A stretch of 64,000 nucleotides of DNA from positions 137,635 to 201,634 of the forward strand of contig DCVK01000021.1 of NCBI GenBank assembly GCA_002335385.1. Direction: 5' to 3'. The stretch comes from Candidatus Aminicenantes bacterium UBA2190. Lineage in GTDB: Bacteria; Acidobacteriota; Aminicenantia; UBA2199. A model generated the notes under the pieces. It saw only the letters and a list, made by a program, of their open reading frames with translations, ran no database searches and was not told the DNA's origin. Of the stretch, positions 1,553-37,530 are shown one piece after another. The stretch's first letter is position 1. Each line of letters opens with the position of its first letter. The translations under genes were made by a program, and so were the position numbers.

Positions 1553-1960
1553 ATGAAAATCAACACCAAGATCCGTTATGGACTGCGCATGCTGATCGCC
1601 ATCGCCCAGGAGGGAAAACTGGTGAACACCACCGAGCTGGGCGAGATCATGCACGTCTCCCCGAAGTACCTGCGCAAGCTGGCCGGGCCGTTGGAAAAGG
1701 GCGGCTTGATCCAGAGCGTCCAGGGGATCTATGGCGGTTATCGGCTGGCCAAGGACCCCGAAGAGATCACCCTGCTGGCGTTGATGGATGCCTTCGGAGA
1801 GAAAGTCTCGCTCGCCAACTGCCTCCTGGGCAAGAAGTGCGAGCTGAAAGACTCCTGCCTGGCCAGGCAGGTCTGGGAAATGCTGGAAAAAACGATGCAG
1901 AAGCATTTTCTGCCCATTTCTCTCGGCGATATCCTGGGCAGCAGGGTGCAGATGCCGTGA
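1553..1960 (+). CDS. Rrf2-family transcriptional regulator (IscR/NsrR-like) with an Fe-S ligand Cys triad
   Basis: N-terminal wHTH typical of Rrf2 (MKINTKIRYGLRML). CLLGKKCELKDSC gives C-x6-C-x5-C spacing like the IscR cluster ligands. Confidence 0.85.
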   Translation: MKINTKIRYGLRMLIAIAQEGKLVNTTELGEIMHVSPKYLRKLAGPLEKGGLIQSVQGIYGGYRLAKDPEEITLLALMDAFGEKVSLANCLLGKKCELKDSCLARQVWEMLEKTMQKHFLPISLGDILGSRVQMP

Positions 1961-2000
1961 CCCCTCGCAAACGCGACGGGCGCCTCCCGGATGGGTGCGG

Positions 2001-2029
2001 TTGACTACTCCCCCGAAATATAGTATATT
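2001..2029 (+). promoter_or_regulatory. sigma70-like promoter, TTGACT-N17-TATATT
   Basis: Spacing is consensus. Short, SD-less leader to ATG 2046. Confidence 0.35.
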
Positions 2030-2045
2030 TGCTGGTAATTACAAC

Positions 2046-2522
2046 ATGACCAAGCGCGGATTTTTGCTTATTTGCTGCCTGATCTTCTTCTGCCTCAACG
2101 CGTTACCCCAGGACGAATTCCTTGGGATCGAGTGCGCGGTCGTGCCGCGCCATATCCTGCAGGGCAACGAGGGGATGCTCAAGATCAAGATCAATTTGCG
2201 CAACGGCGTCAGGATATCGGCCAATCCCGAGTTCCTCATCCGCCTCGACGAGAACGAAAGCCTGTCGTTCGCCAAGATATTCTTCGCCGGCTCGGAGTTG
2301 AACCTGCCCACCACCCAGGAAGGAGAAGCCGTGTTCCTGGACCCGCAGAAAGAGATCGAGGTCCCTTTCACGCTCAGCGAAGAGGCCTTGCTGGGCAATC
2401 TCACCGTCAGCGGCGAGGTCGTTTTCACCATGCTGTTCCCGGACAACTGGTCGGTGAAGACCACGCAGAAGTTCTCGGCCGGCTTCGTTTCGCGCCGGAA
2501 CTACCAGATCAAGAAAAAATGA
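2046..2522 (+). CDS. hypothetical secreted protein
   Basis: Internal Met followed by a hydrophobic signal-like segment (MTKRGFLLICCLIFFCLNA). No recognisable domain. Confidence 0.55.
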   Translation: MTKRGFLLICCLIFFCLNALPQDEFLGIECAVVPRHILQGNEGMLKIKINLRNGVRISANPEFLIRLDENESLSFAKIFFAGSELNLPTTQEGEAVFLDPQKEIEVPFTLSEEALLGNLTVSGEVVFTMLFPDNWSVKTTQKFSAGFVSRRNYQIKKK

Positions 2523-2529
2523 CGCCCGA

Positions 2530-3501
2530 TCACAGGAAGCCCTGCTCGCGGTACCAGGTGATCGTTTCTGCAAGGGCGGCCGGCAGCGGCACGCGGGGTT
2601 GAAAGTGCAGCATGGCATCGATCTTGGCGGCCGAGCACACCCAGGCCGGAAATTTCATCTCGTTGAACTTGTCGCGGTTGAAGATCGCCTTGTTCCCGAA
2701 GAAACGGATGCGCAGCTCGGAGAACTCGGCCAGGACGCGACCCATGGCCTCCGGCACCACGATCGTCCGCGCCTTTTTCTTTCCCAGCAGCAGGGCGGCC
2801 TGCTTCATGAGGGCGTGCCATTCGACGGCTTCCGGATTGGCCACGTAGAAGATCTCGCTCCCGCAGGAGCTGAAGGCAGCGGCGATCATGCCGCGGACCA
2901 GGTCCTTGACATATATCAGCGAATACCAGCGCTGCGTGCGTCCCAACAGGGGGATGATCCCGCGGTTGACGATGCGAAAGGCGTCGAGCATGTCCATGTC
3001 CCAGGGCCCGAAGACGATGGGGGCGCGGATGACGATGCGCGGAACCGCGCACTGCGCCGCGACGGCTTCCTCCTGGGCCAGCTTGCTCCTGCCGTAGAGC
3101 GATATCGGTGCGGCGGGGACCTCCTCGCTCAGCATGGCGCGGCCGAGACTGGGGCCGGCTGCAGCCAGCGACGACAGCAGGATGACGCGCTCCAGGTTTT
3201 TCAAGGGCCGCAGCCGCTCCATGAGCGCGCGCGTGCCCTCGACGTTTACCCGCGCAAAATCGCCGGGAGCCAGCGTCTTGGTGGCGGCCGCCAGGTGGAA
3301 GACCATTTCGATGTCTGCGGGGAAAGGCTCGGACGCGAACAGGTCTCCGCGTACCACCGCCGGCGGCCTCTTGAAGGCGCAGGCTTCCAGCCTGCCGTTG
3401 TCCCGGACCAGGAGATGCACCCGGTGGCGGCCTTCCGCCAGCAGCGCTGCGACCAGGTGGCGGCCGACGAACCCCGTCCCTCCGGTCACCAGTATGTTCA
3501 T
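2530..3501 (-). CDS. NAD(P)-dependent epimerase/dehydratase-family protein (extended SDR)
   Basis: N-terminal Rossmann motif VTGGTGFVG. About 320 aa, typical of GalE / epimerase-like reductases. Confidence 0.85.
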   Translation of the reverse strand: MNILVTGGTGFVGRHLVAALLAEGRHRVHLLVRDNGRLEACAFKRPPAVVRGDLFASEPFPADIEMVFHLAAATKTLAPGDFARVNVEGTRALMERLRPLKNLERVILLSSLAAAGPSLGRAMLSEEVPAAPISLYGRSKLAQEEAVAAQCAVPRIVIRAPIVFGPWDMDMLDAFRIVNRGIIPLLGRTQRWYSLIYVKDLVRGMIAAAFSSCGSEIFYVANPEAVEWHALMKQAALLLGKKKARTIVVPEAMGRVLAEFSELRIRFFGNKAIFNRDKFNEMKFPAWVCSAAKIDAMLHFQPRVPLPAALAETITWYREQGFL

Positions 3502-3550
3502 GGGGCCATTCTATAGAATCCATCCGCATTATGCAAACGAGGAGTGAAAC

Positions 3551-4732
3551 ATGGACGTGTTCAAAAAATGCTTTGAGTTCACCCAGGCCGAAGATTACAA
3601 AAATTCCGGCCTATACCCCTATTTCACCGAGATCGAGAAGGTGGAAGGCAACCACGTGTGGGTCGGCGGCAAGAAGATTCTCATGGTCGGCTCCAACAAC
3701 TACCTGGGGCTGTTCGATGACCCGAGCGTCAAGGCCTCGGCCATCGCTGCCGTCGAGAAGTACGGCACGTCCACCTGCGGCTCCCGCTTCCTGAACGGAA
3801 CGTATTCGCTTCACGTCGAGCTGGAAAAGAAGCTGGCCCAGTTCATGGGCAAAGAAGAGGCGCTGACATTTTCCACCGGCATGCAGACCAATCTGGGGAC
3901 CATCTCGGCCCTGGCCGGCCGCGACGACGTCATTGTCCTGGACCGCATGGTCCATGCCTCGATCATGGACGCCGTGCGCCTTTCCTATGCCCACGTCGCC
4001 AAGTTCAAGCACAACGACATGAAGGACCTGGAGGACAAGCTGGCGCACCAGCCGGCGGAAAAAGGCAAGCTGATCATCGTCGACGGCGTCTTCAGCATGG
4101 AGGGCGACCTCTCCAACCTGCCGCAGATCGTCAAGCTGGCCAAGAAGTACCATGCCCGGGTGATGGTCGACGACGCCCACGGCATCGGAGTCATGGGCGA
4201 GAGGGGACGGGGAACGGCGGAGCATTTCGGCCTGCTCGACGAGGTCGACCTGATCATGACCACCTTCTCCAAGTCGTTCGCCTCGCTGGGCGGCTTCGTC
4301 GTCGGCGACCGCACGATCATCCAGTACATCAAGCACCATGCCCGGTCGCTGATCTTTTCCGCTTCCATTACCCCGGCCGCCCTGGGCGCCGCGCACAGGG
4401 CACTGGAGATCATCCGGAACGAGCCGCAGCGCCGCCAGCGCCTGTGGGAGATCACCCGCATCATGAACAAGGAGCTGACGGCCATGGGCTACCATACGGG
4501 AAATACCGAAACGCCCATCATCCCGGTCTTCATCCACGACATGGAAAAGACCTTCATGATGTGGAAGTTCCTGCGCGATTTCGGCATTTTCACCAACCCG
4601 GTGATCGCTCCGGCCGTGCCGCCGGAGGACTCCCTGATCCGCACCTCGTTCACGGCCACCCACACCGACGAGGACCTGGAATTGATCCTCAAGGGGTTCC
4701 GGCAGGGCGGCAAGCTCCTGGGGCTGATCTGA
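3551..4732 (+). CDS. alpha-oxoamine synthase family PLP acyltransferase (serine palmitoyltransferase / Kbl-like)
   Basis: NNYLGL motif, DDAHG, and the PLP-lysine region TTFSKSFASLGGF. N-terminal YPYF...E as in Spt/Kbl enzymes. RBS GAGGAG. Confidence 0.85.
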   Translation: MDVFKKCFEFTQAEDYKNSGLYPYFTEIEKVEGNHVWVGGKKILMVGSNNYLGLFDDPSVKASAIAAVEKYGTSTCGSRFLNGTYSLHVELEKKLAQFMGKEEALTFSTGMQTNLGTISALAGRDDVIVLDRMVHASIMDAVRLSYAHVAKFKHNDMKDLEDKLAHQPAEKGKLIIVDGVFSMEGDLSNLPQIVKLAKKYHARVMVDDAHGIGVMGERGRGTAEHFGLLDEVDLIMTTFSKSFASLGGFVVGDRTIIQYIKHHARSLIFSASITPAALGAAHRALEIIRNEPQRRQRLWEITRIMNKELTAMGYHTGNTETPIIPVFIHDMEKTFMMWKFLRDFGIFTNPVIAPAVPPEDSLIRTSFTATHTDEDLELILKGFRQGGKLLGLI

Positions 4733-4763
4733 GTTCTGCCCCCGGAGGCAGGCCCGGCGGGCA

Positions 4764-5693
4764 GTGAATATCAGCGCGGTCGTCGTCAGCTTCGACTCCG
4801 CAAGGTTCCTGGAACGGAATTTCCGTTCCCTGGCCGGCCAGACCGTCCCCTTCCGCAAGATCGTCGTCGTCGACAACGCCTCCCGGGACGGTTCGCAGGC
4901 GATCATCGCGGCGTTCGCCGGATCGGACCCGTTGCTGCTGGAAAAGAATGTCGGCTACGCGGCCGCGGCCAATTTGGGCATCGGCCGCAGCGAATCCGAC
5001 CTGGTGCTGGTGGCCAACGCCGACGTCTTTCTCCATGAGGAATTCAATCGCCGCGCCCTGGAGTTCTTCGCCCGCCGCCCGCAGGCCGGGCTGCTCTCCC
5101 CACTCATCCTGCGCTTCGACGGCGCGACCATCGACTCGGCGGGCCAGGAGCGCTCGCTGGCGCTGTACCCCCGCGAGTCGGGCTACGGCCGCCCCCTGGC
5201 GCGCCAGGCGCTGGTGGAGAGGGAGGTCTTCTCCGTCTGCGGGGCGGCGACCGTCTTCCAGCGGGCGGCCCTGGAGAAGCTGAAGATCGGCGACGAGTAC
5301 TACGACGAGGATTTTTTCATGTTCTGGGAGGATTTCGATATCGGCTGGCGGGCCAACCTGCTGGGACTCAGGGCCTATTTCTCCCCCGACGTCGTCGCCC
5401 ACCATTTCCGCAGCGCCACGCTGCCGCGTTCGCGCTGCTCGCGATTCTCGCTGGCGCTGGCCCGGCCCGCCTCCCTGCGCTTTCACCTGGTGAAGAACCG
5501 CTACCTGACCCTGGTCAAGAACTTCCGCCTGCGGCGCGACGCCTGCTCCCTGCCGCTGGCCGCGGCGCGGGACCTGCTGTGGGTGGGAGCATTGACAATC
5601 CGTTCCCCCAAAATTATAATCGCCCTGGCCCGCTCGCGACATGTCTTCAGAAAAGCATGGGGAAAGAGGAAGTGGATAAAAGCTCATGAATGA
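4764..5693 (+). CDS. family 2 glycosyltransferase
   Basis: N-terminal SVVVVSFDSA...VVDNASRDGS is a GT-A fold DxD-type signature. GTG start 32 nt after the previous gene. Confidence 0.8.
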   Translation: MNISAVVVSFDSARFLERNFRSLAGQTVPFRKIVVVDNASRDGSQAIIAAFAGSDPLLLEKNVGYAAAANLGIGRSESDLVLVANADVFLHEEFNRRALEFFARRPQAGLLSPLILRFDGATIDSAGQERSLALYPRESGYGRPLARQALVEREVFSVCGAATVFQRAALEKLKIGDEYYDEDFFMFWEDFDIGWRANLLGLRAYFSPDVVAHHFRSATLPRSRCSRFSLALARPASLRFHLVKNRYLTLVKNFRLRRDACSLPLAAARDLLWVGALTIRSPKIIIALARSRHVFRKAWGKRKWIKAHE

Positions 5694-6687
5694 GATCGTC
5701 CTGGTTTTCTCATTCGTCCTCTCTTTCCTGCTAACGCTGTACGGCACGCCCCTGGCGCAGAAGGCCGCCTTTCGCTATGGGATCCTCGACCAGCCCGACG
5801 GCAAGCTGAAAAAGCACTCCCGGCCGGTGCCGTACATGGGAGGGGTGATCGTCTATTTCGCCTTCATCTCGCCGATCAGCCTGGTGTTCGACTTCAACGA
5901 ACGCCTGCTGGGCATCCTGTTCGCCAGCTCCATCCTGCTGCTGGTGGGGCTTCTCGACGACCTCAAGGCCCTGACCCCGGTGATCAAGTTCCTGTTCCAG
6001 GTGGTGGCCACCTATATCCTGCTCAAGAGCGGCATCGTCATCGATCTGATTTTTTTCCCCCAGTGGCTGGACATCGCCCTCTCCTGCCTGTGGATCCTCA
6101 CCGTGATCAATGCCTTCAACATCATCGACATCATGGACGGGCTGGCCGCAGCGGTGGGCGCCCTGAGTTCCCTGACCATATTCATCATCTCCCTGTATAC
6201 CGGGGACTTCCTGATCTCCATCCTTTCCGTCAGCCTGGCCGCCGCCCTGCTGGCCTTTCTCAAATTCAACTGGGAACCGGCCCGCATCTACCTGGGCGAC
6301 GCCGGCAGCATGGTCCTGGGCCTGATCATCGGCTCCCTGGCCATGATGGTGAGCTATACCCGCTTCAACCGCATGGCGTTCCTCTCGGGGCTTTTCGTCG
6401 TGGGCATCCCGCTCTTCGACCTGGCCTACGTGATCGTGCTGCGCATCCTGAAAGGCCGTTCTCCGTTCCTGGGCAGTCCGGACCATTTCGCCCTGCGCCT
6501 GCGCAAGAAGATGAACTGGTCGGCGCAGCGGACCGTCGGCGCCATCCTCTATGCGCAGCTGGCCCTCTCCGGTCTGGTCATCGCCAGTTTCTTTTCCACG
6601 CCCCGCTTCACCCTGGTTTCCGGCACCGCGGCCGCCGGCTTGTTCATCATCCTGGGGTGGGTCCTGGCGGGGGTGGAAATGGAATGA
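5686..6687 (+). CDS. polyprenyl-phosphate sugar-1-phosphate transferase (WecA/MraY family)
   Basis: Multi-TM protein with NAFNIIDIMDGLAA (N-x2-N-x2-D-G-x-D-G-L) and DxxK motifs. Overlaps the GT2 gene by 8 nt. Confidence 0.85.
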   Translation: MNEIVLVFSFVLSFLLTLYGTPLAQKAAFRYGILDQPDGKLKKHSRPVPYMGGVIVYFAFISPISLVFDFNERLLGILFASSILLLVGLLDDLKALTPVIKFLFQVVATYILLKSGIVIDLIFFPQWLDIALSCLWILTVINAFNIIDIMDGLAAAVGALSSLTIFIISLYTGDFLISILSVSLAAALLAFLKFNWEPARIYLGDAGSMVLGLIIGSLAMMVSYTRFNRMAFLSGLFVVGIPLFDLAYVIVLRILKGRSPFLGSPDHFALRLRKKMNWSAQRTVGAILYAQLALSGLVIASFFSTPRFTLVSGTAAAGLFIILGWVLAGVEME

Positions 6688-7925
6688 ACGTCATCATCGG
6701 GGCCGGCATATCGGGCCTGAGTGCCGGGCAGGAGCTGCGAAGCGATTTCTTGATCCTGGAGAAGAGTTCCGCCCTCGGCGGCCTTGCGGGACAGTACCGC
6801 GCCGGCGGCTTCGCCTTCGATCACGGGGGCCACTATTTCCATTTCCAGGACAAACCGGAGATCCAGAGGCACGTGGAAATGTTCCATGCCTTTCGCCGCT
6901 ACCGGCGCAACAGCAAGGTGTTCCTGCAGGGGCGCTTCATCCCCTATTCCCTGCAGTACCATCTGGCCGGTCTGCCGGCGCGGCAGCGCAACCCCATCCT
7001 GGCCGAGGTCCTGGCCGGCCCGGGCGGTCCGGCGGGCGGGCCGGCGCAGGACCTGGAGCGGTTCCTGCTGGCCCACTTCGGGCCGAGCCTGGTGCGCCTG
7101 TTCTTCGCGCCGTACCTGGAGAAATTCTACGGCCGGCCGCTGGCGGCCATGATCGCCGGCATGGACAAGGGGAGCATCCCGGTCCCAAGGAAAGAGGACG
7201 TTGTGGCCGGTGCCCTTTGCCGACGGCCGTGCGCCGAGGGTTACAACCCCGTTTTCTATTACCCGTCGGGATCGCTCCAGGCTTTCATCGACGATTACGG
7301 GCGTCCCCTGGCGGCAAGGATCCGCTGCCGGGAAGAGGTCGTCGCCATCGAACCGGCGCGGAAGCTGGTGGTCACCAACGGCGGCAGCTATCGCTACGAC
7401 AGCCTGATCAGCACCATGCCCTTGAACCGTTTGCTGGGGATCATGACGCCGCCTCAGCCCTTTCCCCGGAAGCAGTTTCACCACCTGTCGACCCTGGTGG
7501 TCAACGCCGTGCTGGCGCGGCGTCGGCGCCGCTTTCACTGGCTGTATCTGCCGGAAACGCAATTTCCCTTCTATCGCGTCGGCTACTATCCGGCGGCGGG
7601 GACGGTCGCCGTGTACCTGGAGAAGACGATCGCTGCGGATTCCCCCCTCGATGCCCGTCAGGTCCGCCGTGAAGCGGTCTTCACCCTGAAGCGAACGGGG
7701 ATGATCGCCGGCGCCGAAGAGATTCTTTTCCATGACCTGAAGAGGATCCCCGTTTCCTACGTGGTTTTCGATCGCGGGTGGCCGCGACTGGTGCCGGCCG
7801 CACTGGCGCACCTGCGCCGCCAGAGCATCCACTCCATCGGCCGCTACGGCAGCTGGAATTACACGTCCATGGCCGACGATATCCGCCTGGCGCGGGAAAC
7901 GGCCGGCCGCCTCAACAAGGCATGA
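6684..7925 (+). CDS. FAD/NAD(P)-binding oxidoreductase (amine-oxidase / UDP-galactopyranose-mutase-like)
   Basis: N-terminal dinucleotide-binding motif VIIGAGISGLSAG. ATGA overlap with the upstream gene. The ORF track runs this frame on from 6063; the real start is the internal ATG 6684. Confidence 0.65.
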   Translation: MNVIIGAGISGLSAGQELRSDFLILEKSSALGGLAGQYRAGGFAFDHGGHYFHFQDKPEIQRHVEMFHAFRRYRRNSKVFLQGRFIPYSLQYHLAGLPARQRNPILAEVLAGPGGPAGGPAQDLERFLLAHFGPSLVRLFFAPYLEKFYGRPLAAMIAGMDKGSIPVPRKEDVVAGALCRRPCAEGYNPVFYYPSGSLQAFIDDYGRPLAARIRCREEVVAIEPARKLVVTNGGSYRYDSLISTMPLNRLLGIMTPPQPFPRKQFHHLSTLVVNAVLARRRRRFHWLYLPETQFPFYRVGYYPAAGTVAVYLEKTIAADSPLDARQVRREAVFTLKRTGMIAGAEEILFHDLKRIPVSYVVFDRGWPRLVPAALAHLRRQSIHSIGRYGSWNYTSMADDIRLARETAGRLNKA

Positions 7926-9097
7926 GCGGCAGGATCGTCGTCGCCCACGTGATCACCAAGCTGGAGCTTGGCGGCGCCCAGCTCAACACGCTGCACACGG
8001 TCGAGCACCTCGATCCCTTGCGCTTCGACGCCTGCCTGCTCTGCGGCCCCGGGGGGGTGCTGAAGAGCCGGCTGGCCGAAGCGGACCGCCTTTTCATCGT
8101 CCCCGCCCTGGGAAGGGAGATCCGGCCCGTCCGGGACATCCAGGCATTGCTGCAGCTGCTGCGGCTGTTCAAGCGGTTCCGGCCGCAGATCGTCCACACC
8201 CATTCGGCGAAAGCCGGCATTTTGGGACGGGCGGCCGCCCGCCTGGCGGGCGTCCCGGTCGTCGTCCACACAATCCACGGTTTTTCCTTCTCCCCTTTGC
8301 AGCCGTTTTTACAGCGCCGTTTCTATCGCCTGGCCGAAAGAGCCTGCCGGCCGCTGACGGACCATTTCGTCTTTGTCTCCCGCAGCGACATGGACCAGGC
8401 GCGCCGGCTGAAGCTGATGATACCGCCGCGCATCGACTCGGATGGCGACAGCTTCTCCCTCATCCGCAGCGGCTTCCCCCTGGGAAAATTCCTCGCCAGA
8501 GGGGACGCGGCGGCGGCCAGGGCGAAATACGACCTGCCGCCGGGATGTATCGTGTGCGGCACCATCGCCCCTTTCAAGCCGCAGAAGGGGCTGCTGGGCC
8601 TGGTGGAGGTCGCCGCCCGGGTCATCGCCAGGAACCCGGAGGTCATTTTCTTCATCGCCGGAGACGGCGAGCAGCGGCCGCTGCTGGAGGCCGAGCTGCG
8701 GCGTCGCGGCATTGCGGCGAACTTCCGCCTGCCGGGATTCATCCGTGACGTGGAGAACGTCATGGACGCTTTTGACATCGGACTTTCCACCGCCCGGTGG
8801 GAAGGGCTGCCGCAGAGCCTGGTGCAGCTGCGCCTGAAGAAAAAGGCGATCGTGGCCAGCGACATTCCGGGCAACCGTGAGGTCGTCCGGGACAGGGAGA
8901 ACGGACTCCTGGTGCCCTGGAACGACGCGGAGCGCTTTGCCGCGGCCATCCTCGAACTCGCCGGGAATGCCGGGCTGCGGCGCCGGATGGGAAACTTCAG
9001 CGCCGAGGATTTCAGCGAGTGGTCGGCCGACGTGCTGGTGGCGCGCCAGGAGGAGCTGTACCAGCGCCTCGTGGTCCGCAGCTGGACGCGGAACTGA
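7922..9097 (+). CDS. family 4 (GT-B) glycosyltransferase
   Basis: N-terminal VAHVITKLELGGAQ, and a C-terminal E-x7-E-like region typical of GT4. ATGA overlap with the previous gene. Confidence 0.8.
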   Translation: MSGRIVVAHVITKLELGGAQLNTLHTVEHLDPLRFDACLLCGPGGVLKSRLAEADRLFIVPALGREIRPVRDIQALLQLLRLFKRFRPQIVHTHSAKAGILGRAAARLAGVPVVVHTIHGFSFSPLQPFLQRRFYRLAERACRPLTDHFVFVSRSDMDQARRLKLMIPPRIDSDGDSFSLIRSGFPLGKFLARGDAAAARAKYDLPPGCIVCGTIAPFKPQKGLLGLVEVAARVIARNPEVIFFIAGDGEQRPLLEAELRRRGIAANFRLPGFIRDVENVMDAFDIGLSTARWEGLPQSLVQLRLKKKAIVASDIPGNREVVRDRENGLLVPWNDAERFAAAILELAGNAGLRRRMGNFSAEDFSEWSADVLVARQEELYQRLVVRSWTRN

Positions 9098-9127: not shown

Positions 9128-9156
9128 TTTACTTATCATCTCCCGGGGGGTACAAT
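9128..9156 (+). promoter_or_regulatory. sigma70-like promoter, TTTACT-N17-TACAAT, upstream of bfr
   Basis: Followed by a 5'-UTR hairpin GCGGGAGAATTCCCCGC, then AAGGAGG RBS. Confidence 0.35.
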
Positions 9157-9213: not shown

Positions 9214-9678
9214 ATGAAAGGCAACAAGAAGCTGATCCAAACCCTGAATGCGCTCCTGGCCGATGAATTGACGGCGGTCAACCAATACATGGTGCATTCG
9301 GAGATGAATGCCGACTGGGGCTATGAAAAGCTGCACCAGCATTTTGAAAAGCGGGCCATCGACGAAATGAAGCATGCCGAGAAGCTGATCGGCCGCATCC
9401 TTTTCCTGGAAGGACTGCCGGTCGTCACCACCCTGAAGAAGATCACCATCGGTGCGGATATCGCCAAACAGCTGGCCGCCGACCATGCCGCCGAGGCCGA
9501 GGCGATCGTGGCCTACAACCAGGCCATCAAGCTGGCCGGGGATCTGGCCGACTTCGCCACCCGCGAGATCCTGGAAAGGATTCTGAGCGAGGAGGACGGC
9601 CATATCGACAAGATCGAGGAGCTGCAGGATCAGATGGGGCACATGGGGGCGGCGATCTTCCTCACCACCCAGGTCTGA
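9214..9678 (+). CDS. bfr: bacterioferritin
   Basis: MKGNKKLIQTLNALLADELTAVNQY matches the Bfr N-terminus, including the heme-Met region. Ferritin-like diiron ligands are present. Strong RBS. Confidence 0.85.
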   Translation: MKGNKKLIQTLNALLADELTAVNQYMVHSEMNADWGYEKLHQHFEKRAIDEMKHAEKLIGRILFLEGLPVVTTLKKITIGADIAKQLAADHAAEAEAIVAYNQAIKLAGDLADFATREILERILSEEDGHIDKIEELQDQMGHMGAAIFLTTQV

Positions 9679-9695: not shown

Positions 9696-10538
9696 TCAGG
9701 CTGGGCGCATGGCCCGCAGGCGGGCGACCCGCTCCTCAATGGGGGGATGGGTCGAGAACAGCGCCAGCAGGCTCTTGCCGCTCAGCGGCGAGACGATGAA
9801 CAGGTGGGCGGTCTGCCGCGTCGCCCGCAACGGCAGCCGCTTGGAGTATGCGGTCAGTTTTTCCAGGGCCGAGGCCAGTCCCTCGGGATCGCGGGTCAGC
9901 CGGGCGGCACCCTCGTCGGCCTTGTATTCCCGCGTGCGTGAAATGGCCATTTGGATGAGGCTGGCGGCCAGCGGCGCCAGGATGGCCATGGCCAGCAAGC
10001 CCAGGACGCCGCCGCGGTTGTCGTCGTCGCGGCCTCCGAAGAAGACGCCGAACCAGCGTGCCTGATAGGCCAGGAACATGATAGCGCCGGCCAAAGTGGC
10101 GGCCACGGTCTGCAGCAGCGTGTCGCGGTTGATCACGTGAGTCAGTTCATGGGCGATCACTCCCTTCAGCTCCGGTTCGTTCATCAGCTGCGTGATCCCG
10201 CGCGAGAGAGCGATGACCGCCTTGCTGGGATCGCGGCCGGTGGCGAAGGCGTTGGGGGAATCCTGCTCGAAGACATGGAGGGCAGGCATGGGCACCTGCG
10301 CCTGCTGGCAGAGCTCGCGCACCATGGCGTAGATGCGCGGAGATTCGCTCTCGCTCAGCTCGCCTGCCCGGTAGGCCTTGAGGACGATCTTGTCGGAGAA
10401 CCAGTAGGAGACGAAATTCATCACGCCGGCCAGGACCAGGGCGATCAGCATGCCCTGCTGGCCGCCGGCCATGCCGCCGATGAAAAGAAAAATGCCGGTC
10501 AAGGCTCCGAGCAGCGTCACGGTCTTCAATTTACTCAT
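9696..10538 (-). CDS. htpX: zinc metalloprotease HtpX (peptidase M48)
   Basis: HELTH zinc motif within HEXXH. N-terminal TM helices. Conserved ALSRG / FSTHPP segments. Confidence 0.9.
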   Translation of the reverse strand: MSKLKTVTLLGALTGIFLFIGGMAGGQQGMLIALVLAGVMNFVSYWFSDKIVLKAYRAGELSESESPRIYAMVRELCQQAQVPMPALHVFEQDSPNAFATGRDPSKAVIALSRGITQLMNEPELKGVIAHELTHVINRDTLLQTVAATLAGAIMFLAYQARWFGVFFGGRDDDNRGGVLGLLAMAILAPLAASLIQMAISRTREYKADEGAARLTRDPEGLASALEKLTAYSKRLPLRATRQTAHLFIVSPLSGKSLLALFSTHPPIEERVARLRAMRPA

Positions 10539-17716: not shown

Positions 17717-18331
17717 ATGCCCTACCTGAGCCTTGATGTCGGCGCACTGGAGACCAACTGCTACCTGTTCTACGATGAGGCCGGCCGGGATTGCCTGGTC
17801 ATCGATCCCGGCGCCGAGGCGGACAGGATCATGGCGCTGATCGATCAGAACAAACTCCTGCCGCGGGCGATCGTCCTGACCCACGGCCATCCCGACCATG
17901 CCGGCGCCGTTGCGTCCCTGATGGCCCGTTACCGCATCCCGCTCTGGCTGCACGCCGCCGATGAGGAGGCGATGCGTTCCGCGGCCGGTCTCGGCCTGGC
18001 CGCCATGTTCGGCGTCGGACCGCTCCCCGCTGTGGAGCGCCTGCTGCGGGACGGCGACACCCTGGTCTGTGGGAGACTGGAGCTGAAGGTCATCCACAGC
18101 CCGGGCCATTCCCCCGGGTCCGTCCTGCTTCATGGACAGGGGCTGCTTTTTTCCGGCGACACGCTTTTCCGCGGCGATGTGGGGCGCAGCGATCTTCCCG
18201 GCGGCGACGAGGAGGAACTGCGGCGTTCCCTGGCCATGATCAGGGAACTGCCGCCGGAAACGATCGTTTTGCCAGGCCATGGCCCGGCCAGCGTCCTGGA
18301 GCTGGAACTGAAGGACAACCCCTACCTGTGA
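17717..18331 (+). CDS. MBL-fold metallo-hydrolase
   Basis: THGHPDHAG metal-binding motif plus downstream His/Asp ligands. Confidence 0.8.
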   Translation: MPYLSLDVGALETNCYLFYDEAGRDCLVIDPGAEADRIMALIDQNKLLPRAIVLTHGHPDHAGAVASLMARYRIPLWLHAADEEAMRSAAGLGLAAMFGVGPLPAVERLLRDGDTLVCGRLELKVIHSPGHSPGSVLLHGQGLLFSGDTLFRGDVGRSDLPGGDEEELRRSLAMIRELPPETIVLPGHGPASVLELELKDNPYL

Positions 18332-19254
18332 ACATGGCCGGCCCGTCTTCCCCGCGATCGCCACTTGAGCAGTTCCTGCAGTACGCCGAGTTCGAAAAAG
18401 GGTTCGCGACCAACACCATCCTTTCCTATCGCCGCCAGCTTGAGAAGTTCTTCGCCTTCCTGAAGGGGCGGCGGCAGGATTGCCTGCTCCTGGACGAGAT
18501 GGATATCCTCGATTTCATCCGTAGCGCGGGGGGCAAGGGCGGCAGCGCCTCCTCGCAGGCCCACCTGATCTCGGTGCTGAAGAGCTTCTACCGCTTCCTG
18601 CTGCACGACGACCTGATCGCAGCGAGCCCGGTGGCCGCCGTCGCCCTGCCCAAAAAATGGGCCCGGCTGCCAAAGTACCTGTCGCTGGAGGAGGTGACGC
18701 GCCTGCTGGAGTCGCCCGACGCCGCCACGGTCCTCGGTTGCCGGGACAAGGCCGTCCTGGAGCTGATGTATGCCACCGGCCTGCGCGTATCCGAGGTGGC
18801 CCATCTGAAAGCGGCCGATGTCTACCTCGGCGAAGGTTTTCTGCGCGTGCGCGGCAAGGGCGGGAAGGAACGGGTCGTGCCTTTCAGCGATGTTTCCCGC
18901 GATTGCCTGAAGGCCTACCTCGACTCCAGCCGGCCCGCCCTGGCCGGCGCCGGCGATCCTGGAACGCTTTTCGTCAATTACGGCGGCGGGGCGTTCAGCC
19001 GCCAGGGCCTGTGGAAGATGATCAAGGGCTACGGGGAAAAGGTCGGCCTCGCCGCCCGTCTGACCCCGCACGTGCTGCGCCACTCGTTCGCCACCCACCT
19101 GGTGGAAAAGGGGGCCGACCTGCGCTCGGTGCAGATGCTGCTCGGCCACTCGTCGATCACCACCACCGAGATCTACACCCACCTGGCCAAGGACCAGTTG
19201 AAGCGTATCTACGACCAGTTCCATCCGCGCGGGAAAAAAGGCAAGGGGGAGTAG
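18328..19254 (+). CDS. xerD: tyrosine site-specific recombinase XerD/XerC
   Basis: N-terminal SAM-like domain. C-terminal catalytic RHSFATHL...LLGHSSITTTEIYTH with the R-H-R-Y residues. Confidence 0.85.
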   Translation: MNMAGPSSPRSPLEQFLQYAEFEKGFATNTILSYRRQLEKFFAFLKGRRQDCLLLDEMDILDFIRSAGGKGGSASSQAHLISVLKSFYRFLLHDDLIAASPVAAVALPKKWARLPKYLSLEEVTRLLESPDAATVLGCRDKAVLELMYATGLRVSEVAHLKAADVYLGEGFLRVRGKGGKERVVPFSDVSRDCLKAYLDSSRPALAGAGDPGTLFVNYGGGAFSRQGLWKMIKGYGEKVGLAARLTPHVLRHSFATHLVEKGADLRSVQMLLGHSSITTTEIYTHLAKDQLKRIYDQFHPRGKKGKGE

Positions 19255-25600: not shown

Positions 25601-26788
25601 TTACCCCTTGAACTGGTCGAGGGCCAGCAGCAGCAGCCTGGCGGCGCGCTCGAGCTTGGGCGTCTCGATCACGTAGGCCAGGCGCACCTCGTCCTTGCCC
25701 CGGCCCGGGGTCTTGTAGAAACCCTCACCCGGAGCGATCATCACCGTCTCGTTGTTGTCGCTGAACTCGTTGAGCAGCCAGCGGGCAAAGATCTCACCGT
25801 CGGCGATCGGCAGCTTGGCCATGATGTAGAAGGCGCCCTCCGGTTTCTGCAGAATGATCTCCTGGCGCGAGGTCAGGATGGAATAGAGGATGTCGCGGCG
25901 CTTCTGGTATTCGGCCATGACCTCCTTGAAATAGTCGTGGGGCAGCTCGTAGGCGCCGATGGCCCCTACCTGCTCGAGGGTGGGCGGGCAGAGACGGGCC
26001 TGGGCGAACTTGGTAATGCCCTTCATCACGGACTCGTTGCGCGATATCACGGCGCCGATACGGGCGCCGCAGGCCGAATAGCGCTTGGAGATCGAGTCGA
26101 CGACGATGACACGGTCCTCCAGTCCCGACAGCTGCAGCACGCTGAAATGGACCTTGCCATCGTAGGTAAACTCCTTGTAGACCTCGTCGGCGATGAGGAA
26201 CAGGTCGTGCTTCCTGGCGAAATCGCCGATGGCCCTCAGTTCGTCGGGGGTGTAGACGGTGCCGGTGGGGTTGTTCGGCGAGCAGAGGAGGACGGCGCGG
26301 GTGCGCGGGCTGAGTTTCTGCTCGAACTCGCTGATGGCGGGCAGGTGAAATCCGTTCTCGGCCTTGGCCGTCACGGGCACGATCTTGAGGCCGCACTGCG
26401 AGGCGTAACCGCTGTAGTTGGTGTAGAAGGGCTCGGAGACGATGACCTCGTCGCCGGGATCGCCCACGGCGTTGAAGGCGAAGGAAATGGCCTCGCTGCC
26501 GCCGGTGGCGATGACGATGTTCTTGGGTTCCAGAATGATCTCGAAAAAAGCGAAATAATTGACCATGGCGACCTTGAGGGCCTCCAGGCCGTCGGAGGGG
26601 CCGTAGGAGAGGACCTTCTCCTCATAGTCGTAGATCTTCTGATAGAAAACCTCCGGGGTGTGGATGTCGGGCTGGCCGATGTTCAGGTGATAGACGGTCG
26701 TGCCCCGCTTCTTGGCGGCGTTGGCAATGGCGGTCAGCTTGCGGATCGGGGATTCCTGTATGTTCTGGGCGCGCTGCGAGATGTTCAT
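25601..26788 (-). CDS. class I/II (aspartate/aromatic-like) PLP aminotransferase
   Basis: N-terminal MNISQRAQNIQESPIRKL. PLP-lysine SKRYSACGARIG. GGAGG RBS before the internal Met. Confidence 0.85.
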   Translation of the reverse strand: MNISQRAQNIQESPIRKLTAIANAAKKRGTTVYHLNIGQPDIHTPEVFYQKIYDYEEKVLSYGPSDGLEALKVAMVNYFAFFEIILEPKNIVIATGGSEAISFAFNAVGDPGDEVIVSEPFYTNYSGYASQCGLKIVPVTAKAENGFHLPAISEFEQKLSPRTRAVLLCSPNNPTGTVYTPDELRAIGDFARKHDLFLIADEVYKEFTYDGKVHFSVLQLSGLEDRVIVVDSISKRYSACGARIGAVISRNESVMKGITKFAQARLCPPTLEQVGAIGAYELPHDYFKEVMAEYQKRRDILYSILTSRQEIILQKPEGAFYIMAKLPIADGEIFARWLLNEFSDNNETVMIAPGEGFYKTPGRGKDEVRLAYVIETPKLERAARLLLLALDQFKG

Positions 26789-26860
26789 GATGCCTCCTCG
26801 AATGTCAGAAGCAAAATTATAAGCCCAAACAGGGGGAGAAATCAATGACTGTCAGTACTT

Positions 26861-35614: not shown

Positions 35615-36706
35615 GTGAAAGCGGTGCGCAAACTCACCCGCCGATTTTTCCTGTTCTGCAGCGTTGTCTTTGTTCTTTTGCTTGGATTGCTGGCCGTTGA
35701 TTTTGCCTTTTTACGCGGCCGAACCCCGAAAATTGCGGGATCGTCCACCAGCATCGCCTCCCTGGAACGCATCACCCTTGGTGGAGTCGAGCAATGGATT
35801 CTGATTCGCGGCTGGAGGGTTTCGGACCCGGTCGTTCTGTTCCTTCACGGCGGCCCCGGCATGCCGGCAATGTACCTGGCCCACGATTTTCAAAGGGAGC
35901 TGGAAAGGAATTTTGTCATTGTCCATTGGGATCGGCGCGGTGCCGGCAAATCGTATCGTTCGGGGGTCGACGGCGATATCAGCGTCCGCCAGACCATCGA
36001 TGATACATTTGAACTCACCCGTCTTCTCTGCCGGCGCTTGAACAAGGACCGCATTTATCTGGTCGGCCACTCCTTTGGCTCCTATTTTGGCATGCTGGCC
36101 GCCTGGGAGCACCCTGAACATTATTTGGCCTACATCGGCATGGGACAAATGACCGATGGTGCGAACGGAGCGCGTGCAATTCAAGCCCAAAGGCGATTCT
36201 TGCTGCAGAAGGGGCGTGAAGCGGGCGACGATGAACTGGTCAAAAGACTGGCGGCCCCGGGAACAAAGGCCGCCGAAAAAGACCTTTTCCGATATCGCGC
36301 TGAGCTGTTCCGCTCAACCAATTGGTGGCCGATCGCCTACTCGGGCTTGACAGCCCCCGAGTACACCCTTGCGGATATTTTGAATCTGCAGAAGGGAGTG
36401 GACATGGTGGCACGCAAGATCAAAATGCGCATGAACGCGATTCCCGGCCCTCTGGCCGAGTGCGTGAGCCAGGTACGGATCCCCGTTTACTTTTTTTTGG
36501 GCCGCCACGATTACAATACGCCCTCGCTCCTGGCCGAGGAATACTTCCATTTGCTTCAGGCGCCCTTGAAAAAGCTTGTCTGGTTCGAGAATTCGGCGCA
36601 CATGCCCTTTTTTGAAGAGCCCGAATTCTTCCGCAGGCAAATGATCGCCATGGACAGAGGAACGATGCGTTTTTGGACAGCCCAGAAAAAAAAGGCGCAC
36701 GATTGA
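35615..36706 (+). CDS. alpha/beta hydrolase (proline iminopeptidase-like), secreted or membrane-anchored
   Basis: HGGPG oxyanion motif and GHSFGS nucleophile elbow. N-terminal hydrophobic segment. GTG start. Confidence 0.75.
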   Translation: MKAVRKLTRRFFLFCSVVFVLLLGLLAVDFAFLRGRTPKIAGSSTSIASLERITLGGVEQWILIRGWRVSDPVVLFLHGGPGMPAMYLAHDFQRELERNFVIVHWDRRGAGKSYRSGVDGDISVRQTIDDTFELTRLLCRRLNKDRIYLVGHSFGSYFGMLAAWEHPEHYLAYIGMGQMTDGANGARAIQAQRRFLLQKGREAGDDELVKRLAAPGTKAAEKDLFRYRAELFRSTNWWPIAYSGLTAPEYTLADILNLQKGVDMVARKIKMRMNAIPGPLAECVSQVRIPVYFFLGRHDYNTPSLLAEEYFHLLQAPLKKLVWFENSAHMPFFEEPEFFRRQMIAMDRGTMRFWTAQKKKAHD

Positions 36707-36825
36707 TCCCGGCGCGCGCAAGAAGCATGCCCTGCGCACGTGCACCCTGGACGCCGGCCGCCTCTTCGCCGCCGCTTTTCCTGCGGCCAGCGGAAACCCG
36801 CAAAAACCCGGAGCATGACGACATC

Positions 36826-36875
36826 AAGCTTGACAATCAAAGAAAGGCCTGGTAATATGACTTTTAAGTCATATG
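36826..36875 (+). promoter_or_regulatory. promoter TTGACA-N-TAATAT with an overlapping perfect 20-bp palindromic operator, ATATGACTTTTAAGTCATAT
   Basis: The palindrome overlaps the -10 and TSS, directly upstream of the TetR gene (autoregulation typical of TetR). A half-site repeat GTCATAT follows. Confidence 0.55.
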
Positions 36876-36901
36876 ACCAACAAGTCATATTAGGGAGGAC
36901 C

Positions 36902-37516: not shown

Positions 37517-37530
37517 AATAAGGAGGAAAA

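Follow-up and report, generated by a model that had tools for sequence, protein, structure and literature searches.

A serine palmitoyltransferase-like gene kept with sugar-handling genes in Candidatus Aminicenantes, and a possible glycosphingolipid-type product

Introduction

In bacteria, Spt, bCerS and CerR genes frequently lie in one cluster (PMC11334938). The Caulobacter-type ceramide pathway, as Stankeviciute et al. (2022) is relayed in PMC11087976 and PMC11334938, pairs Spt with an extended NDUFA9/epimerase-type SDR. In the inositol-lipid cluster of Bacteroides, a variable polar-head module lies beside a conserved Spt gene (Heaver et al. 2022, PMC9246714). The locus described here shares the first pairing and the second arrangement, and its sugar-handling genes recall a further group of pathways.

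Polyprenyl-linked galactofuranose glycans are products of WecA/Glf/galactofuranosyltransferase pathways, such as those for E. coli O16, Klebsiella galactan and mycobacterial galactan. Their trio of a WecA/MraY-family initiator (PNPT), a flavoenzyme of the UDP-galactopyranose mutase (UGM) type and GT2/GT4 transferases is also found here. In contrast to those pathways, the block is headed by Spt, is without flippase, polymerase and ligase, and encodes a mutase that is long and eukaryote-like rather than of the bacterial Glf type.

We analyzed a window of 64,000 nt from the genome of an uncultured bacterium, Candidatus Aminicenantes (Acidobacteriota; Aminicenantia). Spt and a probable 3-keto reductase, which would be the first two enzymes of sphingolipid synthesis, are retained with four sugar-handling genes, and this suggests an envelope lipid, as yet undescribed, that carries sugars. 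We assign a probability of roughly 0.5 to a joint, glycosphingolipid-type product; the main rival is a pair of co-located pathways.

Results and discussion

On the plus strand, the gene order is (o175)-Spt-GT2-PNPT-mutase-GT4, with the SDR gene divergent on the minus strand. The features are:

1553–1960, plus strand: Rrf2-family transcription regulator (Pfam Rrf2, 103 bits)
1995–2522, plus strand: o175, small secreted protein of uncharacterised type (likely start ATG 2046, giving 158 aa)
2530–3501, minus strand: extended (epimerase/dehydratase-type) SDR (Pfam Epimerase, 99.5 bits)
3502–3550, no strand assigned: divergent control region, 49 nt (promoter-like match, conserved spacing)
3551–4732, plus strand: Spt-like alpha-oxoamine synthase (AOS), 393 aa (profile scores, tree, active-site residues)
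4764–5693, plus strand: GT2-family glycosyltransferase, GTG start, 309 aa (PF00535, 63.7 bits)
5592–5620, plus strand: putative internal sigma-70-type promoter, TTGACA-17-TATAAT (12/12 matches)
5686–6687, plus strand: PNPT, WecA/MraY family (polyprenyl-phosphate N-acetylhexosamine-1-phosphate transferase family; PF00953, 113.5 bits)
6684–7925, plus strand: FAD protein, eukaryote-type UGM-like (UGM structure matches)
7922–9097, plus strand: GT4-family glycosyltransferase (PF13692 and PF00534, 87 and 83 bits)

The start codons of the SDR and AOS genes are 49 nt apart. An untranslated gap of 31 nt (4733–4763) separates AOS from GT2; an earlier note on this DNA gave the succession correctly but reported 32 nt, which is the coordinate difference. 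GT2 and PNPT share an 8-nt overlap, ATGAATGA, and the PNPT/FAD and FAD/GT4 junctions are both ATGA overlaps. The AOS gene, these four genes, their overlaps and the divergent SDR of the epimerase/dehydratase family lie where that note had placed them. The overlaps are conserved in related loci, that of ATGAATGA in 25 of 28. A conserved promoter sequence inside GT2 speaks against reading the run as a simple single-promoter operon. The o175 gene lay outside the coordinates considered at that time, yet belongs to the same conserved block.

The AOS is soluble, with no TM segments, and its translation contains both motifs noticed earlier, the N-terminal YPYF (residues 22–25) and the lysine-region motif TFSKSFASLGGF (residues 238–249). 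It scores 553 bits on NF047600 (CFB Spt), below the NCBIfam equivalog cut-off of 640 bits, and 373 to 397 bits on the beta-proteobacterial Spt, Kbl and BioF models. The best solved-structure match is the Sphingobacterium multivorum SPT (PDB 3A2B/8GUH; NF047600) at 440 bits, with any other chain at 293 bits or less; the two align collinearly over approximately 381 residues, interrupted only by a 4-residue gap close to the C-terminus. All active-site and serine-contact side chains of that enzyme are conserved; the AOS has the PLP-lysine motif TFSKS, with His135, Asp207 and His210, and the serine-contact residues Asn49, Gly77 and Ser78. The acyl-pocket residues Tyr27, Phe28 and Phe83 of the S. 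multivorum enzyme correspond to Y24, F25 and F80. Phylogenetic placement, proposed earlier as a check, puts the AOS inside the clade of characterised SPTs in an NJ tree, with E. coli Kbl, E. coli BioF and the Thermus AOS outside. Judged from profiles, best structure match, tree and residues, the AOS is of the serine palmitoyltransferase type and not Kbl or BioF. It differs from Bacteroidota-type SPTs in lying outside the Bacteroidota clade of the tree, in belonging to an Acidobacteriota (Aminicenantia) genome and in being followed by glycan genes instead of a KdsR-type classical SDR; in Bacteroidota loci, a KdsR-like reductase adjoins Spt.

These results bear on two other assignments. A role in threonine catabolism or biotin synthesis, with the AOS as Kbl or BioF and the SDR as an epimerase-like L-threonine 3-dehydrogenase, draws on general family membership only (PF00155; bioF and Kbl models at 373–395 bits, all under their cut-offs) and is highly improbable: tree, profile scores, best structure match and active-site residues all disfavor it for the AOS, and the gene contexts of relatives are lipid-related. 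The SDR was rejected as a threonine dehydrogenase because solved SDR-type enzymes of that activity (3a1n, 3wmw) match it at 22 to 24 bits, at the level of the N-terminal Rossmann region only. The earlier preference for a glycosylated amino- or sphingoid lipid over threonine catabolism is thus upheld in its dismissal of Kbl and Tdh; action of the sugar genes on a sphingoid lipid is not established. We also regard as unlikely a non-serine, sphingoid-like amino lipid that is subsequently glycosylated, such as a cysteate-derived capnine/sulfonolipid base, an alanine-derived 1-deoxy base or a base made from some other amino acid. Substrates other than serine are known for AOS enzymes of this clade: the SPT of S. 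multivorum also binds Ala, Gly, Hse and Thr (PMC10196870), and Ala and Lys are brought up for such enzymes by Ding et al. (PMC11334938). In addition, the window AOS is under the curated Spt cut-off. Against this, the solved cysteate-C-fatty acyltransferase matches at 257 bits only, compared with 440 bits for SPT, every side-chain serine contact is conserved, and the annotated neighbors showed no cysteate synthase gene.

The SDR carries the motifs GGTGFVG and YGRSK on direct reading. Its Rossmann motif lies right at the N-terminus, without a signal peptide, whereas a periplasmic location is reported for the Caulobacter CerR. Full-length alignments (1e-41 to 1e-68) relate it to Spt-adjacent SDRs of Nitrospirota, Deltaproteobacteria, Ignavibacteria, Terriglobales and Reichenbachiella; the value for E. 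coli RfaD is 2e-7. Because members of its family adjoin Spt-like genes in 41 of 80 related loci, spread over several phyla, the SDR is probably a 3-keto reductase of the sphingoid pathway, either CerR-like or KDS-reductase-like. The control region between SDR and AOS contains a 12-bp palindrome, ATTCTATAGAAT, a possible −10 element in both directions, as well as GAGGAG, the putative ribosome-binding site for AOS. On the minus strand, a promoter-like match (TTTGCA-18-TAGAAT) has its putative −10 ending 7 nt ahead of the SDR start codon, ATG, which would probably leave this gene's transcript without a leader. In group A loci, the spacing and the elements TGCAAACGAGGAGTGAAAC and ATTCTATA(G/T/A)AAT are conserved; we infer a control function for this region from its sequence.

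Relatives in other phyla show what accompanies Spt elsewhere. The gene order is SDR-AOS-c52-PAP2_3 in Nitrospirota and Deltaproteobacteria and c52-Spt-SDR in Reichenbachiella, where Spt is above the NCBIfam cut-off. Family c52 (~370 aa, no Pfam match), a ceramide-synthase candidate, occupies the place expected for bCerS in the Caulobacter-type pathway. The window departs from that pathway here: tblastn with c52 found no bCerS-like gene in the window, as the earlier note had stated, and none of the group A, B or C loci has c52 within 10 kb. No dedicated ACP or acyl-ACP synthetase was noted close to the genes either. Head-group modules also vary by Spt locus. Group D loci carry a PAP2_3 protein, of the PAP2/IPC-synthase-like head-group kind, next to Spt. 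In L029, with an AOS 85% identical to that of the window, the AOS is two genes from MIPS, an NTP-transferase, an LPG-synthase-like gene and a CDP-alcohol phosphatidyltransferase, a set corresponding to the “alternative” cluster for inositol lipids that Heaver et al. describe (PMC9246714). The module in the window consists of GT2, PNPT, UGM-like mutase and GT4, a combination with Spt that was not found in the literature searched.

The GT2 is soluble, with no TM segment. Among the 80 fetched loci, 27 have it after AOS (28 counting the window), as do L083–L085 and L088/L089. It is confined to the Spt-linked block: L090, a locus without Spt, has a GT2 that is 26% identical over 110 aa and not orthologous. 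GT2 is the prime candidate for a transferase that acts on the lipid or adds the furanose sugar.

PNPT has approximately 10 to 12 TM segments in the TM profile, and scores 98 bits on TIGR02380 (wecA), under the cut-off, and 44 bits with MraY structures. Direct reading finds LLDDLK, NAFNIIDIMDGL and YLGDAGS, and the protein has the catalytic motifs canonical for enzymes that use polyprenyl phosphate. To our knowledge, the acceptor of all characterised PNPT enzymes is polyprenyl phosphate, not a sphingolipid. The next gene indeed encodes an FAD protein, but the earlier label “FAD-oxidoreductase” is too generic, as structure-match scores make it UGM-like: T. cruzi UGM (4dsg) matches residues 3–394 at 70 bits and A. 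fumigatus UGM scores 65 bits, compared with only 19.8 bits for bacterial Glf (1i8t). The GGH loop, the PFYR Arg, WLY, the GSWNY Tyr and a Tyr at the aligned position of the A. fumigatus GYP Tyr are conserved; no Arg aligns with the UGM flap Arg, and a Pfam search gave no GLF match. The protein is a probable nucleotide-sugar pyranose/furanose mutase, and its resemblance to UGM implies a furanose sugar. GT4 is soluble and present in most, not all, related blocks, being absent or replaced in L018, L023, L025 and L088.

The order AOS-GT2-PNPT-mutase(-GT4) occurs in 27 of 80 fetched loci, and the block, including the preceding secreted protein, persists from genomes of 62% GC to genomes of 28% GC. 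In L088/L089, at 28% GC, identities are 77% for AOS, 51% for PNPT, 42% for GT2 and 33% for the mutase. The flanks are unrelated housekeeping genes that differ in each lineage. This conservation over deep divergence suggests a functional link between the Spt and sugar genes. The coupling was seen in only one monophyletic AOS clade of the tree, and so may represent just one event in evolution.

The same gene set could also serve two separate products, a serious possibility that we place short of even odds. Spt and SDR, perhaps with GT2, would then make an ordinary sphingolipid, and PNPT-mutase-GT4 would be a standard cassette for a polyprenyl-diphosphate-linked furanose oligosaccharide, destined for an LPS/O-antigen-like glycan, an S-layer, protein glycosylation or a cell-wall polymer; the halves would be merely co-located, perhaps co-regulated as envelope functions. 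Consistent with this, L090 has PNPT-mutase-GT4 in the same order (44%, 32% and 37% identity) without AOS, in a glycan locus beside a Wzx-type flippase and a GT; the PNPT-mutase pair recurs in another polysaccharide locus, L095; mutase homologues elsewhere adjoin LPS-core-type or GT2 genes; and the PNPT motifs are those noted above. The putative sigma-70 promoter, in the 3′ end of GT2 and 66 nt upstream of the PNPT start, points the same way. Neither hexamer varies in any of the 28 loci, even at synonymous positions, whereas third positions of the spacer do vary, and this stretch has the lowest third-position entropy among 10-codon windows of GT2 (0.64, mean 1.35). If active, the promoter would let PNPT-mutase-GT4 be expressed independently of Spt-GT2.

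This promoter, L090 and L095 weaken the link and bear on the earlier suggestion that the glycosyltransferases might belong to an unrelated pathway with its own promoter; deep conservation of the block weighs for the link. The joint reading is further burdened by the lack in the block of a ligase or flippase to join a polyprenyl-linked glycan to lipid, by the lack of c52 nearby, by the sub-threshold AOS score and by a mutase without the aligned flap Arg or GLF match. Two separate products, for their part, fit poorly with a block that stays intact, GT2/PNPT stop-start overlap included, from 62% to 28% GC while all flanks change, and with head-group modules at the equivalent place in other Spt loci. 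Furthermore, no Wzx, Wzy, polymerase, ligase, flippase or export gene was found in any Spt-linked block, unlike in L090. The best explanation is that one clade within Aminicenantes has long kept two biosynthetic halves together.

For the joint product, we infer the substrates, the order of steps and the union of glycan and sphingolipid in one molecule as follows. The first half would comprise o175, the divergent SDR, Spt and GT2. Spt would condense L-serine with a long-chain acyl thioester to 3-ketodihydrosphingosine, and the SDR would reduce the 3-keto group on the free base or after N-acylation, the enzyme for which, if any, would be encoded elsewhere. In the second half, PNPT, the UGM-like mutase and GT4 with their own embedded promoter, the mutase would supply a UDP-furanose, most simply UDP-Galf, PNPT would prime a lipid phosphate with HexNAc-1-P, and GT4 would extend the short glycan. 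GT2 may extend the glycan too, or glycosylate the sphingoid lipid directly. The joint output would be a furanose-containing outer-membrane glycolipid, built on or finally attached to a sphingoid lipid.

The o175 gene keeps its place immediately ahead of the Spt gene, or of the SDR gene where that is inserted; loci in which it adjoins AOS are those of groups A and B, L027/L028 and L088 (38% identity). Its product, read from ATG 2046, has a signal-like N-terminal helix as its one hydrophobic segment, and Pfam and NCBIfam profile searches gave no match. None of the 135 homologues found has a family name, and the few with organism labels are Aminicenantes or Acidobacteria. The AF2 model is a beta-sandwich (pLDDT 67), for which a fold search gave generic Ig-like matches only. 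Directly upstream of o175 lies the Rrf2 gene, a context gene that may encode a regulator of the locus and that occupies the same position in group A loci.

Gene organization of the locus

Gene order is nearly identical in Candidatus Aminicenantes MAG contigs, the closest being UBA6072, whose alpha-oxoamine synthase (AOS) is 96% identical. The window has a GC content of 62%, and the locus comprises the following genes.

Genes of the Spt-linked locus and its flanks (window position; strand where assigned; product)
1553-1960; +; Rrf2 regulator
1995/2046-2522; +; o175, signal-peptide protein with no family match
2530-3501; -; extended SDR
3551-4732; +; alpha-oxoamine synthase (AOS)
4764-5693; GT2
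5686-6687; PNPT, WecA/MraY-family phospho-sugar transferase
6684-7925; FAD protein (mutase-like)
7922-9097; GT4
about 9214-9678; +; bacterioferritin
9696-10538; -; HtpX
further downstream of HtpX; GrpE-DnaK-DnaJ

Read directly, the junctions are as the earlier note described them: a 31-nt gap (32 nt there, as the coordinate difference) separates AOS and GT2, followed by the overlaps ATGAATGA, ATGA, and ATGA. A terminator scan reported none between AOS and GT2, where there is only a 5-bp stem without a T-run. Neither structured RNAs nor tRNAs were found in the window. A class I/II aminotransferase at 25601-26845, considered as a second AOS, is unrelated to the first.

The Rrf2-family (iron-sulfur-type) regulator (1553-1960) and bacterioferritin (9214-9678) bracket the lipid/glycan block, an arrangement that recurs in the closest loci, and a promoter-like site lies at 9128-9156, upstream of the bacterioferritin start. 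From this layout, iron status might conceivably be linked to the envelope locus.

The AOS is an Spt-type enzyme

The AOS matches PF00155 at 185.5 bits and carries both the YPYF and the TFSKSFASLGGF motif singled out previously. The Schiff-base lysine, K241, lies within TFSKSFASLGGF (T-F-S-K-S context), and H135, D207, and H210 align with the PLP contacts His138, Asp210, and His213 of Sphingobacterium multivorum SPT. Among profile models, NF047600 (Bacteroidota Spt) was the top match by >150 bits (553.1 bits), ahead of beta-proteobacterial Spt (397 bits), the BioF/Kbl subfamily (395 bits), BioF (385 bits), and Kbl (373 bits); the AOS scores below cut-off in every one of these models, including NF047600 with its curated cut-off of 640 bits. 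The same model gave 565 bits with a Syntrophorhabdus and 548 bits with a Saccharicenans Spt-like protein, and 675 to 682 bits with Bacteroidota proteins. Because the non-Bacteroidota proteins fall below the cut-off and those of Bacteroidota pass, we regard NF047600 as a clade-specific model.

Against solved structures, the AOS scored 440 bits with S. multivorum SPT, about 292 bits with the Thermus AOS and the Sphingomonas SPTs, and 239 bits with E. coli Kbl. An NJ tree (200 bootstraps) was built from 39 relatives, S. multivorum SPT, two Sphingomonas SPTs, the Thermus AOS, and E. coli Kbl and BioF. The window AOS groups with S. multivorum SPT in one clade (79% bootstrap), and that clade together with the Sphingomonas SPTs (87.5%) excludes the Thermus AOS, E. 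coli Kbl, and E. coli BioF; the tree is distance-based with few references, and its support is moderate.

We compared the active site with the residue list for S. multivorum SPT of Ikushiro et al. (PMC10196870). In a near-gapless alignment (query position equals paper number minus 3), all side chains that contact PLP or L-serine, or that line the acyl pocket, are identical. Residues identical in the AOS are Tyr25, Tyr27, Phe28, Asn52, Gly80, Ser81, Phe83, Leu84, Ser185, Thr241, Ser243, Phe272, and Ala274, and the sole two differences, Phe114 to Met and Met271 to Ile, affect main-chain contacts only. Profile scores, solved structures, the NJ tree, and active-site residues thus place the AOS with Spt and not with Kbl or BioF, as the earlier note had favored. 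By sequence, the AOS is an Spt-type enzyme, predicted to convert serine and a long-chain acyl thioester to 3-ketodihydrosphingosine.

A cysteate acyltransferase (sulfonolipid) reading is kept only as a low-probability rival, since the solved enzyme scores 257 bits versus 440 bits for SPT. When the AOS was searched by tblastn against plasmids, only distant AOS genes were retrieved, the Thioclava and Methylocystis matches lying in ACP/PKS natural-product clusters.

The divergent SDR is a candidate Spt-partner reductase

The SDR (Pfam Epimerase, 99.5 bits) carries the NAD(P)-binding GxxGxxG as GGTGFVG at residues 6-12 and the catalytic YxxxK as YGRSK, both read in alignments. Of the 80 related loci fetched, 41 have a member of this SDR family beside the AOS, divergent in Aminicenantes and co-directional in Nitrospirota, Syntrophorhabdus, and other Deltaproteobacteria; the pairing also occurs in Ignavibacteria, Terriglobales, and Reichenbachiella. 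These Spt-adjacent SDRs align with the window SDR over its full length at 1e-41 to 1e-68 (E. coli RfaD, 2e-7) and share with it GGTGFVG, SSLAAAGP, YGxSK, and a C-terminal W-Y...W-L motif. Matches to NDUFA9 chains are weak (23-24 bits, plus 34 bits to 9g83_P). The protein starts with MNILVTGGTGFVG and is predicted to have neither a hydrophobic N-terminal segment nor a signal peptide; a periplasmic location is reported for Caulobacter CerR (PMC11087976).

A pairing of Kbl with an SDR-type threonine dehydrogenase (Tdh) had been put forward as the alternative to sphingoid synthesis. The SDR matches solved enzymes of that type at 23.7 bits (3a1n) and 22.2 bits (3wmw), over residues 2-143, the Rossmann N-terminus, only, and is not threonine-dehydrogenase-like; Kbl falls outside the SPT clade, and Kbl models and structures score 239-373 bits on the AOS versus 440-553 bits for SPT. 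On scores, tree, and SDR comparison, we rejected the Kbl/Tdh and BioF readings. The SDR is well supported, from sequence and gene neighborhood, as the putative 3-keto reductase partner of Spt. We estimate a probability of roughly 0.85 that the product of Spt and the SDR is a sphingoid base or a precursor of ceramide.

The downstream genes encode a mutase-like FAD protein and a PNPT

The FAD protein matches NAD_binding_8 at 47 bits and does not match Pfam GLF. Its 16 PDB matches comprise 14 eukaryote-type UDP-galactopyranose mutases (UGMs), which take the top 14 places and are led by Trypanosoma cruzi UGM (4dsg, 70 bits, E 1.8e-18, residues 3-394) and with Aspergillus fumigatus UGM at 65 bits; the other two, protoporphyrinogen oxidase and bacterial UGM 1i8t, score about 20 bits each. 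We take the catalytic and substrate residues of eukaryote-type UGMs to be the GGH loop, Arg327 in PFYR, Trp315/Tyr317, Tyr419, Tyr453, and the flap Arg182. Conserved in the FAD protein are GGH (48-50), HWLYLPE...PFYR, the Tyr aligned to A. fumigatus GYP, and the Tyr of GSWNY (GSWxY). At the position of the flap Arg (R182 in A. fumigatus, R176 in T. cruzi), the FAD protein has Ser or Gly, and a Lys stands one to two residues away. The earlier label of FAD oxidoreductase is too generic; we read the protein as a putative nucleotide-sugar pyranose/furanose mutase, most simply one making UDP-Galf.

PNPT matches PF00953 at 113.5 bits (cut-off 27) and has about 10-12 hydrophobic or membrane segments. 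Its Mg-binding motifs read LLDDLK (DD) and NAFNIIDIMDGL (NxxNxxDxxDGL type), and it also has YLGDAGS (GDAGS). With TIGR02380, the WecA equivalog model, it scores 98 bits against a cut-off of 326. HIHH, which we take to be the WecA-type sugar-recognition motif, is absent, the corresponding stretch being SPDHFALRL. On these motifs, PNPT is assigned to the PNPT (WecA/MraY) family.

Control regions of the locus

The 49-nt SDR/AOS spacer (3502-3550) contains a 12-bp palindrome, ATTCTATAGAAT, and is conserved in the closest loci, those whose AOS is at least 85% identical. Its minus strand carries TTTGCA-18-TAGAAT, ending 7 nt before the SDR ATG, an arrangement suggesting that the SDR mRNA is leaderless and that the divergent -10 elements overlap.

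A perfect sigma-70 consensus, TTGACA-17-TATAAT, lies at 5592-5620 (+) within the coding sequence of GT2, 66 nt ahead of the start of PNPT. In 28 of 28 loci (the window and the 27 related loci with the gene block described below), neither hexamer varies, even at synonymous sites, while third positions in the spacer vary freely. The invariant codons include TTG, ACA, AAA, ATT, and ATA, unusual choices for a GC-rich genome, and this stretch has the lowest third-position entropy in GT2 (0.64 versus a mean of 1.35). We take 5592-5620 to be a real embedded promoter, predicted to serve PNPT-mutase-GT4.

The glyco genes are retained with Spt

The run AOS-GT2-PNPT-mutase(-GT4) is present in 27 of the 80 AOS-related loci, with o175 ahead of it in most, and occurs also in contigs labelled KSB1 and Kapabacteria. 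Long Aminicenantes contigs that contain the block include CAVXTN010000006.1 (1.7 Mb) and CAVYQZ010000010.1 (1.0 Mb). In the NJ tree, these loci form one AOS clade (100% bootstrap), sister to Aminicenantes that have SDR-AOS only. The mutase was also searched against cluster representatives, and the contexts of distant matches were inspected. A contig of 28% GC (L088/L089) keeps o175-like-AOS-GT2-PNPT-mutase at identities to the window of 77% (AOS), 51% (PNPT), 42% (GT2), 38% (o175), and 33% (mutase), flanked by YggS, YggT, DivIVA, and RecA. With its partners so dissimilar and its flanks so different, the block has outlived a very deep divergence in which the surroundings all changed. Stop/start overlaps are also conserved in related loci.

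The Spt-like protein itself is 77% identical between a contig of 28% GC and the window of 62% GC, with operon partners at only 33-51%; judged by these identities, the constraint on this enzyme is unusually strong.

The PNPT-mutase-GT4 order also exists without any AOS. In L090 (6997-10416), the three proteins are 44%, 32%, and 37% identical to those of the window, and the locus encodes a PF01943 Wzx-type flippase and three more glycosyltransferases; L095 (5977-8317) has the PNPT-mutase pair in another polysaccharide locus, and mutase homologues elsewhere adjoin LPS-core-type or GT2 genes. This recurrence in unrelated polysaccharide loci of other organisms points to a conserved functional pairing of the PNPT subfamily with the long eukaryote-like mutase. 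Since PNPT-mutase-GT4 stands in Spt-free loci, it is a portable lipid-linked-glycan cassette, and the clade-specific feature is its fusion to o175-Spt-GT2.

Its occurrence without Spt, the polysaccharide neighbors of its mutase homologues, and the conserved embedded promoter would all suit a cassette that makes an independent polyprenyl-linked glycan and is merely co-located with Spt. Against such independence, the block was kept over very deep divergence while flanking genes changed, the stop/start overlaps between its genes are conserved, and flippase, polymerase, ligase, and export genes are missing from every Spt-linked block. We consider an independent glycan the main rival to a joint product, possible but somewhat doubtful.

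Genes for a flippase, a polymerase, a ligase, chain-length regulation, or export are absent from all Spt-linked loci examined and from the window flanks (Rrf2, bacterioferritin, HtpX, GrpE-DnaK-DnaJ). In this the locus differs from a Wzx/Wzy- or ABC-dependent O-antigen/EPS locus.

Relatives set different modules beside Spt

In Nitrospirota and Deltaproteobacteria, the gene order is SDR-AOS-c52-PAP2_3, in which c52, about 370 aa long and matched by neither Pfam nor NCBIfam, occupies the position where a ceramide synthase is expected. PAP2_3 proteins are the type of enzyme used in phospho-head-group transfer. Reichenbachiella has c52-Spt-SDR, with an Spt above the NCBIfam cut-off, and in Bacteroidota loci a KdsR-like classical SDR adjoins Spt (322 bits, NF049977). 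By tblastn, the window contains no homologues of c52, PAP2, or KdsR, and the search with c52 bears out the earlier statement that no bCerS-like gene is present there. A c52-type gene is absent from the window and from within 10 kb in any Aminicenantes locus, which counts against a link between the glyco genes and Spt.

The c52 family lies directly beside Spt-like genes in L053 (8120-9244) and also in L036, L043-L045, L047, L052, L072, L076, and L080; its hosts are Nitrospirota, Deltaproteobacteria, WOR-3, Kryptoniota, Flavobacteriaceae, and Reichenbachiella, and a PAP2_3 protein is often next. By position, c52 is a candidate bacterial ceramide synthase (N-acyltransferase) family not captured by current profile libraries.

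A further context is seen in L029, a related locus whose AOS is 85% identical to that of the window and nested in the window's own AOS clade. This AOS lies two genes downstream of MIPS (myo-inositol-1-phosphate synthase), NTP transferase, LPG-synthase-like, and CDP-alcohol phosphatidyltransferase genes, a set matching the 'alternative' inositol-lipid cluster described by Heaver et al. (PMC9246714). The PAP2_3 and inositol contexts imply that lineages set different head-group modules beside this Spt; by analogy, it is plausible that the glyco genes too have a head-group role. No glycosyltransferases were found beside Spt in WOR-3, Ignavibacteria, Chloroflexia, Marinimicrobia, Kryptoniota, or one variant of the sister Aminicenantes group.

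This stretch of L029 (848-8285), on a contig labelled Pelobacter sp. UBA5610, has neither the SDR nor the glyco genes. The AOS follows the inositol-lipid-type cluster, two TetR genes, and a patatin fragment, and a resolvase is nearby; this looks like either a mis-binned contig or an Spt gene laterally transferred to a different head-group setting. In the sister group (Saccharicenans and relatives; for example L031, 7803-8801), SDR-Spt lies between genes for a FabH-type 3-oxoacyl-ACP synthase III and an S55 (SpoIVB-like) peptidase, which stand in place of the glyco genes. This FabH may supply a special acyl primer.

A possible glycosylated sphingolipid

We give even odds to the view that Spt, the SDR, and the four glyco genes all work towards one final envelope glycolipid, which would contain a furanose sugar. 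Two routes can be envisaged. In one, PNPT would use a sphingolipid (phosphate) as the direct acceptor of HexNAc-1-phosphate, and this, if true, would be a first for the PNPT family. In the other, polyprenyl diphosphate would carry a short glycan during its assembly, and the glycan would then be ligated en bloc to the sphingolipid, which would amount to LPS-like assembly logic on ceramide in place of lipid A. A new envelope-lipid class by either route, with a sphingoid or ceramide anchor and a furanose-containing glycan assembled by PNPT chemistry, is an improbable outcome. If the two halves are independent, this is an ordinary Spt locus beside an ordinary glycan cassette.

Spt-like genes have been reported in about 40 phyla and are described in many uncultured ones, often with CerR and bCerS nearby (PMC11334938), and head-group chemistry and most glycosyltransferases are uncharacterised outside a few cultured models (PMC13028669). 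Our literature search found no paper linking Spt with PNPT or UGM or describing Spt in Aminicenantes, and nothing relevant on Aminicenantes LPS. Sphingolipids are now considered widespread in bacteria, and this compact gene set, conserved over deep divergence in an uncultured phylum, bears on whether Aminicenantes have sphingolipids, whether these carry a furanose sugar, and whether a WecA-family enzyme acts in head-group assembly. Further leads are the SDRs, as a cross-phylum candidate reductase family, and c52, as a candidate N-acyltransferase family without a Pfam or NCBIfam model.

o175 and other features of the window

The small secreted protein o175 is encoded directly upstream of Spt in most glyco-coupled loci and in some others (L088 copy, 4398-4886). 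It has no Pfam or NCBIfam match; none of its 135 homologues carries a family name, and the few labelled by organism are from Aminicenantes or Acidobacteria. Its AF2 model is a beta-sandwich of modest confidence (pLDDT 67), for which Foldseek against the PDB returned only generic beta-sandwich matches (TM at most 0.44). If the locus makes the new envelope-lipid class considered above, o175 would act in periplasmic handling.

A XerC/XerD-type tyrosine recombinase gene (18328-19254, +; Phage_integrase and SAM-like N-terminal domain) follows a metallo-beta-lactamase-fold gene. The stretch 35615-40412 stands out by a much lower GC content (52-54%) and GC3 (0.62-0.68 versus 0.85-0.9 elsewhere), and lateral acquisition as an island is possible. 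Its genes are for an alpha/beta hydrolase, a TetR regulator, one protein without matches, and two outer-membrane beta-barrel proteins, the last of which confirm a diderm envelope.
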